Shown: positions 5,500-33,097 of the stretch, in pieces
How positions within the stretch are numbered: the stretch's first letter is position 1
Layout: each line of letters opens with the position of its first letter
DNA from: Candidatus Woesearchaeota archaeon
GTDB taxonomy: Archaea; Nanobdellota; Nanobdellia; Woesearchaeales; GW2011-AR9
DNA: 37,343 nucleotides
Reading direction: 5' to 3'
Assembly (NCBI GenBank): GCA_018221085.1
Contig: JAAOXZ010000079.1
Coordinates: 1-37,343, forward strand
Notes under the pieces: generated by a model
Told to the model about the DNA's origin: nothing
The model's input: the letters and a program-made list of their open reading frames with translations, nothing else
Databases searched by the model: none
Translations under genes and position numbers: made by a program

Positions 5500-5757
5500 A
5501 TGGATTATTCACAAAAAAGAGATGTAGTGGTATTGGGACTGGGAACTATGCTTGGTTTTGGTTTTGGTATAAACATTGGAGTTGTTATCCCCTATATAGA
5601 AGAGATTATTGTTCCTAATAACCTAGAACTTACCTGCCAAGAATTAAGTGAAAATAGTAAAGAAGTTAAAATTGACGGCACCCCCTACACATTAAAATGT
5701 GATGAGCAAGGTAGGCCCAGACTTTATGAAACTAAACCAGCAGAAAAACAAGAGTAA
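5500..5757 (+). CDS. small N-terminally anchored protein with 2-Cys ELTC..IDGTPY..KCD.QGRP domain
   Basis: N-terminal TM; paralog of 28264..28596; identical 23-nt leader/SD. Confidence 0.7.
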   Translation: MDYSQKRDVVVLGLGTMLGFGFGINIGVVIPYIEEIIVPNNLELTCQELSENSKEVKIDGTPYTLKCDEQGRPRLYETKPAEKQE

Positions 5758-6165: not shown

Positions 6166-6855
6166 ATGGAAAAACTATATGAAGAATGTCAACGGATAGA
6201 AGCCGAAGCGGATGCTGATATTGAAGGTTTTAATAGAGTTCTTGAAGACCTTGAAGCAGTAGATGGTCTTGATATTGCTTTGTTAGAAGATGAAGGCGTA
6301 CCTGATTTCTTTGCTGCAGATTTTGGAACCTCTGAAAACGATGGACAAGATAGACCAAAGAAACCAGTTCTATATAGTATTATCTACAACATTGAAAAAA
6401 CAGTAAAAGAATTTGTTTTTGCCTTACCAGTAGCTCTACACTATCTCGGCATATATAGGGCATCTGATTATGCCTTAAATAACACTCCTCATCGCTCTCC
6501 AAATAAAATAAAAAAAACCTTAGGCTCAATTGTATTGGCTGGAACTATGGCTTTAGGTATGTACTCTGTCCAAGATACTAAAACTCAAAATGATGAAAAT
6601 GCGGTTGCTCATGCCGAAGGAGAATATGCTGCCGCACAAATTAAGAAAAAATCTATTGAAATTCTAGCTGAAGCTGACGCTGAAAAGTACAAAATCCTAG
6701 AAAAAGCTCTTAATCCTAAAACTCCTGCAGAAAGAAAAGAAGTTAGACAATTATTCAATAATTTAGTAAAATATATTGATCTTAGAGAAAGATCTGGAGA
6801 TGTAGTTTGGATGCTTGATGGAGAAAAACCAATTTCTACTTATCGACCTAAATAA
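6166..6855 (+). CDS. membrane protein with acidic (E/V)LYEECQRIEAEADA N-terminal domain
   Basis: Paralog of 11610..12596 over the N-terminal ~50 aa; hydrophobic segments mid-protein; SD AGAGGT. Confidence 0.65.
   Translation: MEKLYEECQRIEAEADADIEGFNRVLEDLEAVDGLDIALLEDEGVPDFFAADFGTSENDGQDRPKKPVLYSIIYNIEKTVKEFVFALPVALHYLGIYRASDYALNNTPHRSPNKIKKTLGSIVLAGTMALGMYSVQDTKTQNDENAVAHAEGEYAAAQIKKKSIEILAEADAEKYKILEKALNPKTPAERKEVRQLFNNLVKYIDLRERSGDVVWMLDGEKPISTYRPK
6175..6218 (+). repeat. 44-nt 5' coding block, 43/44 identical to 11619..11662
   Basis: CTATATGAAGA(A/G)TGTCAACGGATAGAAGCCGAAGCGGATGCTGA in both genes; identity falls off sharply on both sides. Confidence 0.9.
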
Positions 6856-10271: not shown

Positions 10272-10298
10272 GAATCTTTCTATTTTTATTAACATTAT

Positions 10299-10584
10299 GC
10301 CATCGTCGCATAATCTGGTATTGCGCTGGTCTTGAATTTAAAACTAGTCAACCAGTTTCCTCTGGATACAGAGTGAAATCCAACCTTACTGCCGCGGTCG
10401 CATAATCTGGTATTGCGCTGGTCTTGAAACTTTAGCCTTTGGGTAAAGTCCCAAAAGCAAAGCTTTAGTGAACCAGTTTCCTCTGGATATCCCGGTTCAA
10501 ATCCGGGCCGCGGCGTCAAATAATAGTTGGATTTCACTAGTACCGGAGAATCTTTGATTCTCCTTGTATCCCGGTTCGATGGCG
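10299..10584 (+). other. outer tRNA-Ser-like gene (acceptor, D and anticodon arms, 13-nt 37/38 intron) with its T-arm position occupied by a three-way junction carrying the inner tRNA-Ser
   Basis: GCCATCG (10299..10305) and its exact complement CGATGGC+G (10577..10584). 31-nt and 19-nt blocks are identical to the inner tRNA. 13-bp helix 10372..10384/10526..10538, 7-bp helix 10364..10370/10565..10571, hairpin 10545..10563. No canonical T arm could be folded. Confidence 0.4.
10391..10515 (+). tRNA. tRNA-Ser(UGA), type II, with 42-nt intron 10429..10470 at 37/38; no encoded CCA
   Basis: Acceptor GCCGCGG/CCGCGGC, D loop with GG, anticodon stem CTGGT/ACCAG, loop CTTGAAA, 14-nt variable arm, T arm CCCGG-TTCAAAT-CCGGG, G73. 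Confidence 0.85.
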
Positions 10585-11609: not shown

Positions 11610-12596
11610 ATGGTAGAACTATATGAAGAGTGTCAACGGATAGAAGCCGAAGCGGATGCTGAAACCGAAATAGCAAGAGATGTTGTTAGGGCTCTTGGTG
11701 AGATAAAAGGACTTGATACAGATATTGCTCGTTTAGAAGACATCGCTGTACCAGACCTTCTTGTTGAAACTTCTGAAAGAATTCCACCAGAACCTTTAGA
11801 ACAAATTGCGTTAGACAGTTCTACAGAACAATACGAACAACAACTAGACTCTTATGCCGAATTAAAAACCCATTACCAAGCTTTGCTGTCAGAAGAAGCT
11901 AGATTATCTAAAAAATACCGTAAAGAAATCAGAAAAGCCCAAAAATATGCTGCTAAACAGGTTAAAAAAGATAAAAAACACTTACAAAAGTTACTTTATC
12001 AATTTGAACAAGAAGATATAGTTGAAGGGAAGGAAGGCATCCAAGTTAAATTAAATGCCCTTTTCCAAGCCGAACAAAGACATTTCCTTAACTACTTAAT
12101 TGACGAACATCCCAATAAGTATCAACAAGATTTCCGCGATTGTTACAACCCCTTACTTCCTTTTCTTCATTTTTCAACTGCAGGAACAGTTCACCAAAAG
12201 ATAATCTTAGATGAACTACAACTCGATCCTCAAGAAAGAAAAGTATTTGAACAATACCAATCAGAAAAGGATGACTTGGAATTAATTATTAATAAAAAGT
12301 TAGGGAAACATCCAAAAAGGACAGATTTAAATCTTGGAGGAGCTACCTTAATTATAAGTGCGTTTTCTTCACTGGGATTTATAGGAATCGCCGCATTAGT
12401 TCATGAGATTTTTGAAATTACGCCTCCAGAACTAGTAATTCCTTTGGTATTTGGACCAGCACTTATGACTACACTAGGGATAGTTTCTGGAATGTATTTC
12501 TCAACCCACCCACAATACAAAGCTAGAAAACAAGCTAAGCAAGATCTAAACAAATTAAAAGCAGAAACCATCAAAATCTTAGCAAAAACCAGATAG
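11610..12596 (+). CDS. membrane protein with acidic ELYEECQRIEAEADA N-terminal domain, coiled-coil middle, C-terminal TM hairpin
   Basis: Paralog of 6166..6855; 44-nt near-identical 5' block; TTTATAAA 22 nt upstream. Confidence 0.7.
   Translation: MVELYEECQRIEAEADAETEIARDVVRALGEIKGLDTDIARLEDIAVPDLLVETSERIPPEPLEQIALDSSTEQYEQQLDSYAELKTHYQALLSEEARLSKKYRKEIRKAQKYAAKQVKKDKKHLQKLLYQFEQEDIVEGKEGIQVKLNALFQAEQRHFLNYLIDEHPNKYQQDFRDCYNPLLPFLHFSTAGTVHQKIILDELQLDPQERKVFEQYQSEKDDLELIINKKLGKHPKRTDLNLGGATLIISAFSSLGFIGIAALVHEIFEITPPELVIPLVFGPALMTTLGIVSGMYFSTHPQYKARKQAKQDLNKLKAETIKILAKTR
11619..11662 (+). repeat. partner of the 44-nt block at 6175..6218
   Basis: See 6175..6218. Confidence 0.9.

Positions 12597-26188: not shown

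Positions 26189-26189
<1 letters not shown>
24975..26189 (-). CDS. hypothetical protein with protein-kinase-like (APH/choline-kinase-type) signature, translationally coupled to gyrB
   Basis: YRLKG (beta3-Lys-like), RTNAHLGNVVIY (resembles the HGDLHxGN catalytic loop, with Asn at the Asp position), LVDFDAS (DFG/DxD-like). The start ATG shares one base with the gyrB stop (TAATG). Confidence 0.6.
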
Positions 26190-28090
<1,901 letters not shown>

Positions 28091-28263
28091 CTAGTTTCTG
28101 AGTTAAATTTTAAACCTTAAAAAAGTTTACTTATCGTCGACAAAACGTACTAAATCTGAAGACCTTTTTCTTTATAAAGCTTGTGGTTATTTCGGAAAAA
28201 AACACCACAAAACATATAAATCAATCATCATTTTTAACAGCAATTTACGGAGGAATAATAAAA

Positions 28264-28596
28264 ATGGCATTTAGTGGATTTAGTTATGTAATGGGATTTT
28301 TGTTTGGAATGGTAACTATGCCCATAACCGAGTATTGTACAGAAAAAACATCAGAACCAAGGGAAGTTCAACCAAATCAATTAGAACTCACTTGTGAAGA
28401 GTTAGGTAGTGAAGGAAAAGAAGTAACAATTGACGGCACACCCTATGCCTTCTTAAAATGTGATGACCAAGGTAGACCCGTGCTTACACTTTATGAAAGC
28501 AAATCTGCCGAAGTAACTCCAGAATACGGAATGTTACCTGGAGCTCTTTCCGAAAACATCCTTAAAGGTTACGATTCAGACGGTGGAATACAATGA
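28264..28596 (+). CDS. small N-terminally anchored protein with 2-Cys ELTC..IDGTPY..KCD.QGRP domain (paralog of 5500..5757)
   Basis: The ATG at 28264 is preceded by a GGAGG SD. The TATA box at 28171..28178 makes the track GTG start at 28183 unlikely. Confidence 0.65.
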   Translation: MAFSGFSYVMGFLFGMVTMPITEYCTEKTSEPREVQPNQLELTCEELGSEGKEVTIDGTPYAFLKCDDQGRPVLTLYESKSAEVTPEYGMLPGALSENILKGYDSDGGIQ

Positions 28597-28895
28597 CGGA
28601 TGAACATGGTTGTGAAATGAGAGATGAATGTGTTTTGTACCAGCATAGAGAACGCTATAATCAAGGTAGAATAGAAATTCGTATTGATCAATCCTATTGT
28701 GATAGCGTCAGAGAAAGTGATCTCGATAAAACTGGTCATTGTCCGATTTACGATACCTCCATGGAAGGCGTAGCAGCTTTGTTAGAAATGGCTGCAAATT
28801 CTTTTGAAGAAGTTAGTAAAAAATTAGATGGCGTTAATACTGGTCTAGATAAATGTATTGCCCTGTTTAAATATCGTCCCGAAACAGATAAATAA
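28593..28895 (+). CDS. hypothetical Cys-rich protein (100 aa)
   Basis: ATGA start/stop overlap with the preceding gene. Confidence 0.55.
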   Translation: MTDEHGCEMRDECVLYQHRERYNQGRIEIRIDQSYCDSVRESDLDKTGHCPIYDTSMEGVAALLEMAANSFEEVSKKLDGVNTGLDKCIALFKYRPETDK

Positions 28896-28904
28896 TCTCC
28901 GTTT

Positions 28905-29399
28905 CTATCCTTTAAACATATAAGAAAGATTGTTGTATTCGTCTGTTTTGTAAACAGCAATACCTTCATCGTGCCATAGTACGAATTCTTCAATACCTAC
29001 ATCTAAAATCGATTTACTACAGATAGTACAATAAGGTTTTCCTGCCCGAGTTAGCTTTCCTTCTTTGTCAAGTCTAATAAAATATAATCTGGAACCTTTT
29101 ATTTTTTCAGAATTGTGTTTATCTAAAGCATCCATCACTGCTCTTTGTTCAGCATGAACACAACAAGTTTTATCCGTTACTTTTTTGTGATGAGAATCTT
29201 TGGATAAATGACACCTTCTTTGTGCTTCATCATTTCCCGGCGGAGAATTAAAACCCTTACCAAGAATCTCATCATCTTTGATAATCACTGCTCCACACTT
29301 ACTTCGCAAACAAGTAGCTCTCAAAGCTACTTCAGCTGCCTTTCTTAAACACATCTCCGCAATCCTTGCTTCTTCCCCAGTTAAATATCTCATAACCAC
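28905..29399 (-). CDS. dCMP/cytidine deaminase-family zinc enzyme
   Basis: CVHAEQRAV (HAE) and PCTICSKSI (PCxxC) zinc-binding motifs. Confidence 0.85.
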   Translation of the reverse strand: MVMRYLTGEEARIAEMCLRKAAEVALRATCLRSKCGAVIIKDDEILGKGFNSPPGNDEAQRRCHLSKDSHHKKVTDKTCCVHAEQRAVMDALDKHNSEKIKGSRLYFIRLDKEGKLTRAGKPYCTICSKSILDVGIEEFVLWHDEGIAVYKTDEYNNLSYMFKG

Positions 29400-29427
29400 T
29401 CAGAATAACAGACCTTAATAAAAGTTT

Positions 29428-29461
29428 AGGTTCTAACCCATCAACAAATCCGAAACTAGCA
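29428..29461. repeat. degenerate copy 1 of the CcdA-like gene 3' end (cassette boundary)
   Basis: AGGTTCTAACCCATCAACAAATCCGAAACTAGCA; reverse strand would read ..LVSDLLMG*; followed by AAAGATTTATAAA. Confidence 0.7.
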
Positions 29462-29465
29462 AAGA

Positions 29466-29473
29466 TTTATAAA
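29466..29473 (+). promoter_or_regulatory. TATA box with AAAG BRE-like prefix for the methyltransferase cassette
   Basis: AAAGATTTATAAA, 23 nt before ATG 29497; the same 13-mer occurs at 30430..30442. Confidence 0.6.
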
Positions 29474-29496
29474 TCATACTCGGTATTTTCGATGCC

Positions 29497-30357
29497 ATGA
29501 CACAAATAACTGTAGTTACTGATCAAGATTTAGAAAGACAGAGAATATTGGGATTTAATTTAGAAAAGGAAATTGAAAATCCTCGAGACAGTGTTGATCC
29601 AGAACTCTTAAACGTCCTAGCAAATTCAGGAAATACTTCTTATTTAATTGAATTTGATGATGTTAAAGTTCTATCTAGACAATCTGAAGCGTATCCCAAC
29701 CCCACTTTAAATCATTTTGCTCTAGCTCACTATTTAAGAAAACAAGGCGTAACCTCCAAAAAAGTCATAGACTTAGGTTGTGGGGTCGGATTTCTAGGAA
29801 ACTATGGCGCTATTCGTTTAGAACCAGAAGTTATTGTATTCTCAGATTTAAATCCCAATGCCATAAACCAATCCGCTATTTCATATCAACTGAATACTGG
29901 CGTCAATTTACAATCTGCCAAAGAAGTACCTCATCAATATGGAATAGAACTCCAAACCGGAAAACAAACAGTGGATTTAAGAATAGGAAATTCCGCAGAA
30001 ACCTTACACAATTATGATGCCGAAGGTTGCATCAGCTTATGTTCTCCAATGTATTTGCCAGGTATTTGTGAAGTCTTTCCCCAAGCATTTGGATTCTTTG
30101 CCAATGTTGCTAAAAACACTGGCTCTAGATTGTATATTGGACATTCCAATCTTGCTTCAGATTTAGTAGAACAAGCAGCTGAAATGAATGGCTTACGTTT
30201 AACTTCCAAAGAAGAAAAAAGAGTTCCTTTTTTAATTGAATATACTGATGGAAGAGAACAAAGGATATGTGATGGACTTGTTTCTAAAGGATTAGAAATA
30301 GACGAGAATGGCAAAGTGTATCATAAATTAATGGTTTCTGAATTATTTCAAGAATAA
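29497..30357 (+). CDS. class I SAM-dependent methyltransferase (HemK/PrmC-like small-domain type, degenerate NPPY = SPMY)
   Basis: VIDLGCGVGFLG motif I, FSDLNPNAI motif II, CSPMYLP at the NPPY position. Confidence 0.6.
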   Translation: MTQITVVTDQDLERQRILGFNLEKEIENPRDSVDPELLNVLANSGNTSYLIEFDDVKVLSRQSEAYPNPTLNHFALAHYLRKQGVTSKKVIDLGCGVGFLGNYGAIRLEPEVIVFSDLNPNAINQSAISYQLNTGVNLQSAKEVPHQYGIELQTGKQTVDLRIGNSAETLHNYDAEGCISLCSPMYLPGICEVFPQAFGFFANVAKNTGSRLYIGHSNLASDLVEQAAEMNGLRLTSKEEKRVPFLIEYTDGREQRICDGLVSKGLEIDENGKVYHKLMVSELFQE

Positions 30358-30365
30358 TAATCAAC

Positions 30366-30416
30366 TTCTAACCCATCAACAAACTTGGATTAACTAGCAG
30401 AATAATAACTCTAAAG
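30366..30416. repeat. degenerate copy 2 of the CcdA-like gene 3' end (cassette boundary)
   Basis: By my manual alignment about 42 of 51 columns match 31789..31837; reverse strand would read ..LLVNPSLLMG*; followed by AAAGATTTATAAA. Confidence 0.75.
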
Positions 30417-30433
30417 TAGTGAATGACAAAAGA

Positions 30434-30441
30434 TTTATAAA
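30434..30441 (+). promoter_or_regulatory. TATA box with AAAG BRE-like prefix for the protease cassette
   Basis: AAAGATTTATAAA; the ATG at 30491 has a GAAGGT SD. Confidence 0.55.
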
Positions 30442-30490
30442 ACAAATGTTATTATTAAGCTATATTTGTAATTCACGAAGGTAAACTAAA

Positions 30491-31771
30491 ATGAGTAAAA
30501 TAAACACGTTAACTAAAATCGTTGGCAGTACCTTACTAGCTGGAGTTCTGTTTCTTGGGGGACATAGTATTGGAGAGTATAGTGCAACAAATCATTTTAA
30601 ACCAAAAATTGAATTAAAAGAAAAACAAAATCTTGAATTAAAAAAAAAGCTTGATCTAGAGAAAGAAAGGCTTGAATCAGAAAAGGAGCAAAAAATAGAT
30701 TTAGAGAAAAATCTTGAATTAGAAAGGTTGAAAAGAATCGAATTTGAAGAGATATGGGAAGATAGTCTTTTTAACTATGCCCATTTAGGAAAGGTAGATC
30801 TTTCTAGAAAAAAAGTTACACTTGATATTTACATTGATGAAAGTGAAGAACTAGGAGTATACAAAAAAAACAAAGAGAAAATATTCAAGTATGTTTCAGA
30901 TTTCTATAAAAAAATGGGTGTAGATTTAGACATCAGATTTGTTGACACTATTGACCAATCAGCTTTAAAGCCTGCTAAATATCTTGCTATTGAAATATAC
31001 ACTGGGGAAAAATGCGCTCAAAGGGATTGTGAGCTTGAAGGAATAGAAACTTGTAGAATTAGAAAAGAGTATTCGATGGATAAGTTAATGAATATGTATA
31101 CTGCAGGTATAGCACGCATAGATCAAAATATTGCTTTAGCTTGTTACTGTATGGCGGGAAGTTTAGAAGATGCAATAGAGGACTTTTCTCTTGATGAATT
31201 GGAAAAAAGGATTGACACAGTAGAAAAGACCATAGAAAAAGGTATGGAAGAGTATAAAATGATTACAGAAGCATATAGAAAAGGAAGGATTGAATTAGAA
31301 AAATTAAATTTTGTTTTTATTGACAAATTCTTTAATTCCTTCTTCATGGAAAAGAGAAAGAAAATAGAAAAGTTAACAGAAGAGATGTTAATCATGGGTG
31401 AATTAATGAGAGACGTAGATAAAAAAAGAACTAAAAAGAGACCTTCTAATGCTGGAATCAGAAGAAAAGCTGGAACGATTATCCATGAACTTGGCCATCT
31501 TTTTGGATTATACCACAGCGATTCATTTACTAATGATCCAGTACCAGATTATCTTAGTACAAAAAGAGACACACCAAATTATATGGTATCAGTTACAAAC
31601 CCAAATTATTCTATTAGATTTCCTACTGGACATGGATTTAACGAGTTCCAAAAAAGAATGGTTCATAGTTATTTAGGTGGTGGGAAGGTATATCAACAAC
31701 TAGAAGCGGTAAATTTTGATTTTTATAAATATCTTGAACATATTAAAAAAGCGAATAATTATAGGGAGTGA
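30491..31771 (+). CDS. membrane-anchored zinc metalloprotease (metzincin-like HExxHxxGxxH)
   Basis: N-terminal TM, coiled coil, IIHELGHLFGLYH. Confidence 0.7.
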   Translation: MSKINTLTKIVGSTLLAGVLFLGGHSIGEYSATNHFKPKIELKEKQNLELKKKLDLEKERLESEKEQKIDLEKNLELERLKRIEFEEIWEDSLFNYAHLGKVDLSRKKVTLDIYIDESEELGVYKKNKEKIFKYVSDFYKKMGVDLDIRFVDTIDQSALKPAKYLAIEIYTGEKCAQRDCELEGIETCRIRKEYSMDKLMNMYTAGIARIDQNIALACYCMAGSLEDAIEDFSLDELEKRIDTVEKTIEKGMEEYKMITEAYRKGRIELEKLNFVFIDKFFNSFFMEKRKKIEKLTEEMLIMGELMRDVDKKRTKKRPSNAGIRRKAGTIIHELGHLFGLYHSDSFTNDPVPDYLSTKRDTPNYMVSVTNPNYSIRFPTGHGFNEFQKRMVHSYLGGGKVYQQLEAVNFDFYKYLEHIKKANNYRE

Positions 31772-31788
31772 AAAAGAAATTTGAGAGG

Positions 31789-31837
31789 TTCTAACCCATC
31801 AATAGTCCCGGATTAACTAGTAGAACAATACCTAAAG
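31789..31837. repeat. authentic 3' end of the CcdA-like gene (..LLVNPGLLMG*), master copy of the boundary repeat
   Basis: TTCTAACCCATCAATAGTCCCGGATTAACTAGTAGAACAATACCTAAAG, contiguous with the 31791..32621 reading frame. Confidence 0.8.
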
Positions 31838-32621
31838 CAACCATGATTAAACCGCCGATTAACTTAATGATCTGCATTTGTCTTTTACTGATTTGTCGAC
31901 CTTGGAAAGTGTAACCCATTACTCCAATTACCACCGCTAACGGCAGTACATATACTAAATTATACAACAACAAGTAAGCATAACTACCCAAACTATGGGA
32001 GGCATACTTTCCCGCTAACACTCCAGAATAAATTATCGGAAACCCCGCCGTACAAGGTAACTCAATCAAAGAACTAAAGGCTGCTAGGGTTACAGAAGAT
32101 AATATTAAAGCCGGCATCGAAGCAAACATAATTTTTTCTTTCATCCGCTCAATCATTCTTAATAAAGGACCTTTATGTTTCTCCTGAATCATCAAAGTAA
32201 CTCCCTTCCGGAACCAAAAGAATTCCTTGCAATTAATCAATCCAGCAATCAAGGCCAATAAAGCAATCCCAATCCGCAACGGATCGATAAAACCAATAAA
32301 CCTAAAGATATTCAACCACGCTGTCATAAATAAGAAATAAATCACAAACACCATTACCACAAAAGTATAACCCACCACATAGATTCTTTTCCGACTATGA
32401 GATGCTGAAACCAATAAACCCAACAACAATGTCAAAACAAACAAATTACAGGGATTAAAACCATCAACTAAGGCCACAATAAAAGTAAACACTGGCAAGG
32501 GTAACACCAAACCCATATTTTTCAAAAAACCAGAAGATGCCATCTTAGTTAAAAAGAAAAACACCACTATACCTGCTAAAACCAATCCAGCAATTAAAAA
32601 CCTTTTACTTCTAATTCTCAT
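31791..32621 (-). CDS. CcdA/DsbD-like thiol-disulfide transporter membrane protein
   Basis: Multi-TM with two intramembrane Pro-Cys motifs (FNPCNLF, ELPCTAGFP); ATGA overlap with the upstream thioredoxin-like gene. Confidence 0.55.
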   Translation of the reverse strand: MRIRSKRFLIAGLVLAGIVVFFFLTKMASSGFLKNMGLVLPLPVFTFIVALVDGFNPCNLFVLTLLLGLLVSASHSRKRIYVVGYTFVVMVFVIYFLFMTAWLNIFRFIGFIDPLRIGIALLALIAGLINCKEFFWFRKGVTLMIQEKHKGPLLRMIERMKEKIMFASMPALILSSVTLAAFSSLIELPCTAGFPIIYSGVLAGKYASHSLGSYAYLLLYNLVYVLPLAVVIGVMGYTFQGRQISKRQMQIIKLIGGLIMVALGIVLLVNPGLLMG

Positions 32622-33097
32622 TCTAAAAATTTACTAATAATTTCAAAATATTCCTCTTTTGATTTTCCACCAACATAAACATCACAACCCACTAACATAG
32701 TTGGAGTATAATGTGGTTGGATTCTTAATTTCTTCATTTCTAAAGAATCTGCGCTCTCGGATAAATCTAAGAAAGTAATATCTACTCCCAATTCTATCCC
32801 TACATCTCTTATTAACGGAACTACCACACTACAAGCCCCACAATATTTTGATTCCAAAACAACAATCTTATCGTCCAGACTTCTTTCAGTACATAATCCA
32901 TTAGAAAGACTTCCTTCTTTATCTAAAATCACTGCCCCATCTTTCACAGTATATTCAGAAACGGGTAATTCATGGTCTTTAGCACATCCTTGTGCTAACA
33001 TTGCCACCAGTACCAAACCCACCAATAATCCTTTTTTATACATATTCTTCTCTAAAGAGAAAAACCATTTAAATATCTTTCTTTTCTTATGGTTCAT
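32618..33097 (-). CDS. secreted/anchored thioredoxin-fold protein (CxxC)
   Basis: N-terminal hydrophobic anchor, SKYCGACSVVVP CxxC motif. Confidence 0.6.
   Translation of the reverse strand: MNHKKRKIFKWFFSLEKNMYKKGLLVGLVLVAMLAQGCAKDHELPVSEYTVKDGAVILDKEGSLSNGLCTERSLDDKIVVLESKYCGACSVVVPLIRDVGIELGVDITFLDLSESADSLEMKKLRIQPHYTPTMLVGCDVYVGGKSKEEYFEIISKFLE

Follow-up and report, generated by a model that had tools for sequence, protein, structure and literature searches.

The window analysed here, a contig stretch of 37,343 nucleotides (nt) labelled Candidatus Woesearchaeota archaeon, reads as ordinary chromosome with genes for the proteasome, FttA, CCA-adding enzyme, endonuclease V, SMC and GyrB. 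It contains the gene of a CcdA-like membrane protein (31791..32621, minus strand, 276 amino acids, aa), which forms an operon with a thioredoxin-like gene (32618-33097), and beyond its stop codon lie two single-gene units, each bounded by a copy of the CcdA-like gene end. Along the plus strand the order is the start of a divergent deaminase gene, relic A, a TATA box, a methyltransferase gene, relic B, a second TATA box, the gene of a metzincin-type protease and copy C. An initial annotation, made from the letters alone, had described this layout as repeat-promoter-gene-repeat-promoter-gene-repeat with one plus-strand gene per unit, and the list of open reading frames (ORFs) and the repeat positions agree with it.

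The CcdA-like gene is the presumed target of insertion and is intact, its product having the length of nearly all of the 818 homologs (274-277 aa) and a conserved C-terminus. The protein has no match in Pfam or NCBIfam, and its label derives solely from the annotations of the Joint Genome Institute (JGI), in which some homologs are named CcdA. Most homologs are labelled Woesearchaeota or other DPANN archaea. Related loci are referred to below by L numbers. At the loci L007-L086, family members of 53-72% identity occur in bins labelled DPANN archaea, Candidate Phyla Radiation (CPR) bacteria, Omnitrophota, Planctomycetales and others, a range of labels that suggests either extensive horizontal transfer or errors of binning.

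All three copies read on the minus strand. Copy C (31789..31838) is the working 3' end of the CcdA-like gene, ..ALGIVLLVNPGLLMG and the stop codon, plus 2 nt. Relic B (30366..30416) is a non-coding copy of this end that would read ..VIILLVNPSLLMG and stop, its full reading in the CcdA frame being FRVIILLVNPSLLMG and stop. Relic A (29431..29460) is shorter, abuts its TATA box directly and would read LLVSDLLMG and stop. Reading frame and stop codon are thus preserved in both relics. Over 45 nt aligned without gaps (30366-30410 and 31789-31833), B and C have 82% identity; they match in 42 of 51 columns if two 1-nt gaps are allowed, and a fainter similarity of B possibly extends to about 30425. 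A and B have the exact 18-mer TTCTAACCCATCAACAAA in common. The 14-mer TTCTAACCCATCAA occurs exactly at three plus-strand sites (29431, 30366 and 31789) and at no further site of the whole window with up to two mismatches. The annotation's account of two non-coding relics of the last ~50 nt of the gene, with frames ending in ..LLMG and stop, an 18-mer shared by A and B and about 42 of 51 matching positions for B by hand alignment, was reproduced in each of these points.

Chance similarity was ruled out by shuffled sequences and by a control on gene tails. Local alignments scored 63 for C and B, 43 for C and A and 55 for B and A, while the shuffle maxima were 39, 39 and 41; in each pair, none of 500 shuffles reached the observed score, which places the similarity above background. 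The tail control covered the tail of every ORF of at least 120 aa in the related loci and the window (2,361 tails, 1.75 Mb). The CcdA tail was among about a dozen high scorers, and as those inspected (including L165, L008 and L020) were low-complexity or internal repeats, it was the sole genuine, non-low-complexity case of a direct downstream copy. When the terminal 60 nt of each CcdA homolog from about 170 related loci were searched against both strands of the same locus, the window alone scored high (51), with best chance matches elsewhere of 32-36. Since the repeats exceed the shuffles and no comparable relic is present in the related loci, the feature is real and rare. A generic intergenic element, which the initial annotation had named as a possible refutation, was also ruled out: with up to one mismatch, the core 14-mer was found at the three window sites and as one chance match in 1.74 Mb of related loci.

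A core that is perfect in all three copies between diverged flanks could likewise be expected of a functional motif, such as a protein-binding site, an insulator or terminator, or an element of the 3' untranslated region, that overlaps the CcdA stop codon and has been kept for its function. Two copies are placed accordingly, B 8 nt past the stop codon of the methyltransferase gene and C 17 nt past that of the metzincin gene, both on the plus strand. Copy A, however, follows no plus-strand gene, neither strand gave a fold signal and Rfam had no match. Furthermore, the motif is missing from the metzincin loci L003 and L169 and, apart from the one chance match, from the rest of the 1.74 Mb, and in relatives the core merely follows the codons of ..LMG and stop. 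We therefore hold a conserved functional motif to be highly improbable.

Each relic is followed by a promoter with a B recognition element (BRE) and TATA box of identical sequence. In line with the initial annotation, the 13-mer AAAGATTTATAAA is found at 29461..29473 before the methyltransferase gene and at 30429..30441 before the metzincin gene (both plus strand). These are its only exact sites in the window. From the BRE/TATA to the start codon there are 23 nt in the methyltransferase unit and 49 nt in the metzincin unit, and a single plus-strand ORF follows each promoter (29497-30357 and 30491-31771). The same promoter stands upstream of the metzincin homologs of L003 and L169, and about 30 nt beside the metzincin TATA box (TTTTGnnAnTnACTACTnnTTAG) are common to the window and these two loci. 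On both strands of 3.5 Mb of related sequence, the 13-mer occurs just eight times, four of these being metzincin promoters. This rarity, taken together with the different promoters of the methyltransferase gene elsewhere, suggests that the repeated unit is a relic plus a promoter. The 16-mer AATGACAAAAGATTTA is identical at 30422-30441, before the metzincin gene, and at 1646-1665 of the window, before an unrelated ORF of ~75 aa, a recurrence that suggests an extended promoter or regulator-site class of this genome.

The relics bear the marks of former coding sequence. Over 13 codons, B differs from C by the synonymous changes CTA>CTG, CCG>CCA and CTA>TTG and by the conservative replacements V>I and G>S, and it is nearer to the gene end of the sister lineage L001 (34/39) than to the window's own copy C (32/39). 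In L212, the version TTGTTGATGGGTTAGAA of the two relics A and B forms the real gene end, while L001 has TTGTTGATGGGTTAG; the relics therefore resemble once-functional alleles of the gene end and not random products of decay. A recombination breakpoint inside the CcdA-like gene was considered and rejected, because the identity of window and L001 is flat along the gene (78% in the last 51 nt, 80% overall).

Retained frames, stop codons and differences of the synonymous type would also fit the last remnants of tandem CcdA paralogs that were almost wholly deleted, with the neighbouring genes arriving independently. The family is indeed widespread, with two copies in some genomes (L016/L029). Yet both relics measure 30-60 nt and abut a TATA box, an outcome that random deletions would not give twice, none of the relatives carries CcdA genes in tandem here, and upstream of the relics there is no more CcdA-like sequence. 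Paralog remnants are thus an improbable source.

A closer relation exists between A and B themselves. A equals B, including the same TATA 13-mer, after the loss of 29 nt (at a TG microhomology) and of 3 nt, and the two agree at TGCTAGTT and TTTGTTGATGG, unlike C. The second repeat may therefore stem from the first relic-plus-promoter module instead of having been copied from the gene anew. These two observations are also the core of a different account, in which the gene end was truly duplicated only once, with the arrival of the metzincin gene or in an ancestor, and a promoterless methyltransferase ORF was captured later. A capture independent of a recombinase, by repair synthesis, template switching or end joining, would have duplicated ~75 nt of relic and metzincin promoter on both sides of the ORF, which would further account for a methyltransferase promoter that is unlike those of its homologs and identical to that of the metzincin gene. 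Against it, no enzyme is known that duplicates a target of ~75 nt, and the occurrence of the same promoter type elsewhere in the window means that promoter identity possibly reflects no duplication. The sequence GAACCT after the stop codon is present in A and C, while B runs into the trailer of the methyltransferase gene instead, a pattern that fits an att-type exchange equally well. We consider this account of a single gene-end duplication rather unlikely.

The array occupies part of a slot that is variable among relatives. Relatives with CcdA identities of 75% or more form a clade whose backbone consists of VIT (minus strand), the thioredoxin-like gene, the CcdA-like gene, the slot and gyrB. 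In the window, the far side of the slot is formed by gyrB (26189..28084, minus strand) with its promoter and conserved leader (28085..28205, minus strand, ..AACCACAAGCTTTATAAAG..TTTTGTCGACGATAA..), which is orthologous to the sequence that directly follows the CcdA-like gene in relatives with an empty site. Such empty sites were found in L001/L002 (CcdA identity 88%, CcdA-gyrB gap 142 nt), L168 (82%, 144 nt) and L006 (78%, 183 nt). Convergent metzincin homologs fill the slot in L003-5 (79%, about 1,470 nt) and L169 (80%, 1,536 nt), a co-directional deaminase gene in L089 (76%, 772 nt) and a 93-aa gene in L167 (82%, 581 nt). L088 (80%) has a convergent small gene, L212 (83%) two convergent small genes with gyrB beyond the contig end, L087 (83%) a GC-rich non-coding stretch and L170/L172 (72%) an insertion sequence (IS) of the rve type. 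The window itself carries five genes in a gap of 3,707 nt. Slot content hence differs in almost every sampled lineage, and the two conserved genes enclose a defined hot spot. Both comparisons proposed in the initial annotation, for empty sites and for different cassettes in relatives, gave positive results. Its placement of the array between the CcdA stop codon and the deaminase promoter holds for the two units, whereas the variable region is larger and comprises all 3.6 kb from ~28205 to 31791.

The remaining slot content of the window consists of the cytidine/dCMP deaminase gene (28905..29399, minus strand), which is co-directional with the CcdA-like gene and lies immediately downstream of relic A, and of two small ORFs of 137 and 100 aa (28183..28895, plus strand), which fill the space from the deaminase gene to the gyrB promoter and have no detected homologs in the related loci. 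In L089, a deaminase homolog (43% identity) directly follows the CcdA-like gene; relic A sits where the CcdA end would be in such a CcdA-deaminase arrangement.

As the slot is polymorphic in the clade, and as the contig is metagenomic and without a duplicate in the collections, strain variants of the slot might have been joined in tandem by the assembly through their common gene-end sequence. The copies differ from each other, however, and their exact common words of 14-18 nt are below usual assembler k-mers. The relic-promoter junctions have no long word in common with the CcdA-like gene, and L003 contains an independent decayed relic. An assembly artefact appears extremely improbable.

Some further features of the slot and its borders were observed. 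The slot of L087 starts with a GC-rich, apparently non-coding stretch (L087:1275-1700) that is unlike its AT-rich surroundings and has no Rfam match. The gyrB genes of the closest relatives (L001:5589-8777 and L002:3661-6849, 1,062 aa) contain an intein (Pfam Intein_splicing), while the window gyrB (631 aa) does not. The 137-aa ORF is paralogous to another region of the window (28372-28479 and 5614-5718, 73-93% nucleotide identity over ~100 nt), and each of the two codes for a small membrane-anchored protein with the common pattern ..LELTC.EL....KEV.IDGTPY..KCD.QGRP... Translation of the 137-aa ORF probably begins at the ATG near 28261, as the GTG given in the ORF list overlaps with the gyrB promoter. 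A defence island was rejected, as the sole match of PADLOC was to a generic deaminase domain.

The second unit encodes a membrane-anchored metzincin-type protease (30491..31771, plus strand), convergent with the CcdA-like gene. Its label, a weak one, is based on the motif HELGHLFGLYH and on homologs named 'matrixin'. Among 5.8 billion proteins just two full-length homologs were found, L003-5 (61%) and L169 (56%), so that the full-length architecture is confined to three Woesearchaeota-like loci. The remaining matches cover the C-terminal catalytic ~100 aa alone. This part is 50-59% identical to 'matrixin family' proteins, which belong to Desulfobaccales or Thermodesulfobacteriota where the source is annotated, and the sequences suggest that the metzincin-type protein acquired a bacterial protease domain. 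The metzincins of L003 and L169 are 66% identical and their CcdA-like proteins 84%; the window compared with either gives 56-61% and 79-80%, respectively. The slots of the window's sister lineage L001 and of L168, the neighbour of L169, are empty. The metzincin gene is either an old one that underwent several losses or one that was transferred between related lineages into the same place. In L003, the spacer beyond the ~30 nt beside the metzincin TATA box forms a decayed colinear match to the locus' own CcdA end plus 16 nt (p about 0.004, lenient gaps). The same lenient-gap test was not significant for L167, for L089 and for a possible fourth relic 'D' at the window gyrB promoter.

The first unit encodes a class I S-adenosylmethionine-dependent methyltransferase of MTS-like type (29497..30357, plus strand; Pfam MTS, E 3e-6, a weak label). 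The family is rare, with 19 homologs, and the closest of them occur in three unrelated contexts, next to genes for a TraC-like ATPase and TFIIB, between those for Thi4 and a PHP protein, and between those for an OB-fold protein and MCM. The nearest homolog (75%) lies between a TraC/VirB4-like ATPase gene and the TFIIB gene (L173:2092-6914), and these surroundings may belong to an element, conjugative or integrated, that is carried by a related archaeon.

Single-gene units in one orientation without a nearby integrase call to mind integron-like cassette arrays, and archaeal integrons, mostly clusters of attC sites lacking an integron-integrase (CALINs), have been reported in DPANN-group archaea (PMC9668308). 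Modules moved by Xer recombinases at dif-type sites share these traits of the array. The GTTAGAA of the repeat moreover resembles the core GTTRRRY, a consensus that was not found in PMC9668308. Sites of the attC type are imperfect palindromes which, as single strands, fold into hairpins by pairing of the R''/R' and L''/L' boxes. No attC-type hairpin was detected, though, with z-scores of single-stranded DNA folding between +0.4 and -1.4 in three regions and on both strands, and no complementary R' box was read downstream of TTCTAAC. The repeats also contain no dif-like 11-6-11 dyad, the best dyads pairing 6-7 of 11 positions (p 0.66-0.99 against shuffles). They are direct repeats copied from the 3' end of a coding gene, and every unit has its own promoter. 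The window encodes no IntI, which is not decisive alone, given that CALINs lack it. The probability of a CALIN or of dif-type modules is next to negligible.

A transposon or insertion sequence was excluded by the missing transposase, inverted repeats and short target-site duplication: no inverted repeats bound the units, and the repeats of 30-50 nt derive from a gene end. Rfam had no match in the array region and reported two tRNAs only in the window, both distant.

The target is intact, each insert has on its far side an end copy in direct orientation, and the boundary is sharp, 2-5 nt past the stop codon. From this geometry we infer that the duplicates were created by recombination of the gene end with an incoming or non-allelic copy. 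We favour, with a confidence slightly better than even, serial target-duplicating insertion at the 3' end of the CcdA-like gene, in at least two successive events and in the manner of a tandem accretion of integrase-less modules. Insertion would occur at the last codons of the gene and would have opened the hypervariable slot before gyrB in one Woesearchaeota-like clade. Each event would add one gene with its own promoter, leave a duplicate of the target and keep the CcdA-like gene intact. The first event would have duplicated the terminal ~50 nt of the gene; the second would have duplicated this end once more or copied the existing relic along with the promoter beside it. Circular or non-allelic DNA that bears a copy of the gene end would recombine with this end on the chromosome (Campbell-type or attP x attB), and repeated integration at the copy that ends the gene would stack the units. 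A, being more decayed, is presumably the older relic and B the younger or a refreshed one. The likely catalyst is a recombinase encoded elsewhere or host homologous recombination on the identical cores. We find a variant attractive in which unequal exchange takes place between strains with different slot cassettes, the relic of one strain pairing with the real gene end of the other; this would explain B as a fresh coding allele and A as a decayed one. The initial annotation had proposed serial integration of small circular elements, or a capture hot spot, at the gene 3' end. The repeats, the variable slot and the empty sites support this proposal in part, its small circles and a site-specific recombinase being hypothetical. 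Serial insertion is further supported by the decayed match in L003 and by the tandem integration and integrase loss documented for archaeal mobile elements (PMC8371274).

Several results weigh against serial insertion. Domain scans of the window ORFs of at least 90 aa detected no integrase, transposase or other recombinase, as the initial annotation had stated for integrases. The viral contigs searched held no attP-like or extrachromosomal copy: the long pattern had 0 matches, and the 36 matches of a 17-mer were all unrelated coding sequence for 'VDGLE' without extended similarity. The same module was found neither at an attP nor in other hosts, the metzincin gene being restricted to the slot and the two methyltransferase homologs whose DNA was read, L173 and L174, having no relic flanks and other promoters. 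The metzincin gene is seen only in the CcdA-gyrB slot with a divergence congruent with the CcdA tree, which gives no direct sign of movement; it may therefore be an old resident lost elsewhere and not a recent arrival. Its copy in L169 shows no significant relic of the locus' own CcdA end in the lenient-gap test. The identity of the promoters of A and B could reflect a promoter class instead of a duplication, because AATGACAAAAGATTTA recurs at position 1646 of the window. The identical cores of 14-18 nt are short for homologous recombination. Finally, an exact-protein look-up of the window CcdA found no second copy of the contig in the collections, and the clear relics come from one metagenomic contig.

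The closest known system appears to be the tandem accretion of integrase-less modules at a gene 3' end. Accretion has been described for integrative elements of bacteria and for their derivatives without an integrase (PMC5704250), with ICESt1 and cis-mobilizable elements (CIMEs) at fda of Streptococcus thermophilus and PAISt at bacA of Streptomyces as examples (PMC5704250, PMC4057263). Similar to these, the array has an intact target gene and internal repeats that divide the island into modules, and the modules are flanked by direct repeats (C, B and A) that are copies of the target 3' end. Modules without an integrase, entry at the copy that holds the gene end and empty sites in relatives are further common traits. 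In contrast, the units of the array measure 0.9-1.4 kb with a single ordinary gene each, no integrase or transfer gene was detected in the 37 kb, the repeats are 82% alike and fused to promoters, the host is a DPANN archaeon, and neither excision nor mobility was observed.

In archaeal viruses and plasmids with tyrosine recombinases, tandem integration at one locus and later loss of the integrase gene are known (PMC8371274), traits that the array would share. Those elements are multi-kilobase and carry replication or virion genes, none of which is present in the array. In most known archaeal cases, the target is a tRNA gene or the integrase gene itself is split. Xer-dependent modules, such as integrative mobile elements exploiting Xer (IMEX) and the pdif modules of Acinetobacter plasmids, are small, lack an integrase and are moved by the host recombinase at short sites. 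Xer/dif sites consist of two inverted 11-nt arms around a 6-nt spacer (PMC8371274); the array differs from Xer modules in the lack of this dyad and in its sites, which are in direct orientation and derived from a gene end. With integron arrays and CALINs (PMC9668308) the array has single-gene units in one orientation, short site-like repeats and the lack of an adjacent integrase in common. Unlike integrons, it has no attC structure, repeats made of coding ends and two units only. Integron cassettes are mostly promoterless and depend on a common promoter, whereas the units of the array each have their own BRE/TATA. Integration hot spots are slots flanked by core genes and filled with lineage-specific accessory genes, and the CcdA-gyrB slot is similar to them. 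The turnover of such hot spots through homologous recombination in the flanks leaves no duplicated gene ends, and these are the feature that distinguishes the array from ordinary hot spots.

Two other repeats were observed in the window. A direct repeat of 39 nt (10298-10336 and 10390-10428, 92% identity, spaced by 92 nt) has as its second copy the 5' part of an intron-containing tRNA (Rfam 10391-10515; missed by ARAGORN), and the first copy may be another tRNA or tRNA fragment. In addition, the first 60 nt of two ORFs of 229 and 328 aa without Pfam matches (6166-6225 and 11610-11669) are 90% identical, and the two may have exchanged or duplicated their N-termini.

The genomes of DPANN archaea are small, and the ways in which these organisms acquire and shed genes are little understood. 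The duplicated gene ends found in one genome are a molecular scar that points to a mechanism of insertion. If the scar is not a reusable recombination site, it would be an ordinary record of two insertion events. More speculatively, and in our estimate quite unlikely to be correct, the ~50-nt copy of the CcdA end with its promoter might serve as a portable recombination site by which single-gene cassettes are exchanged, stacked and deleted among related DPANN strains, host recombination or one trans-acting recombinase being sufficient. The patchy distribution of the metzincin gene and the clean empty sites would then result from deletion between direct repeats. Such a reusable site would provide a simple way of acquiring genes by stacking cassettes without an element-encoded integrase, and the array would be an integrase-less functional analogue of the integron in reduced archaeal genomes.

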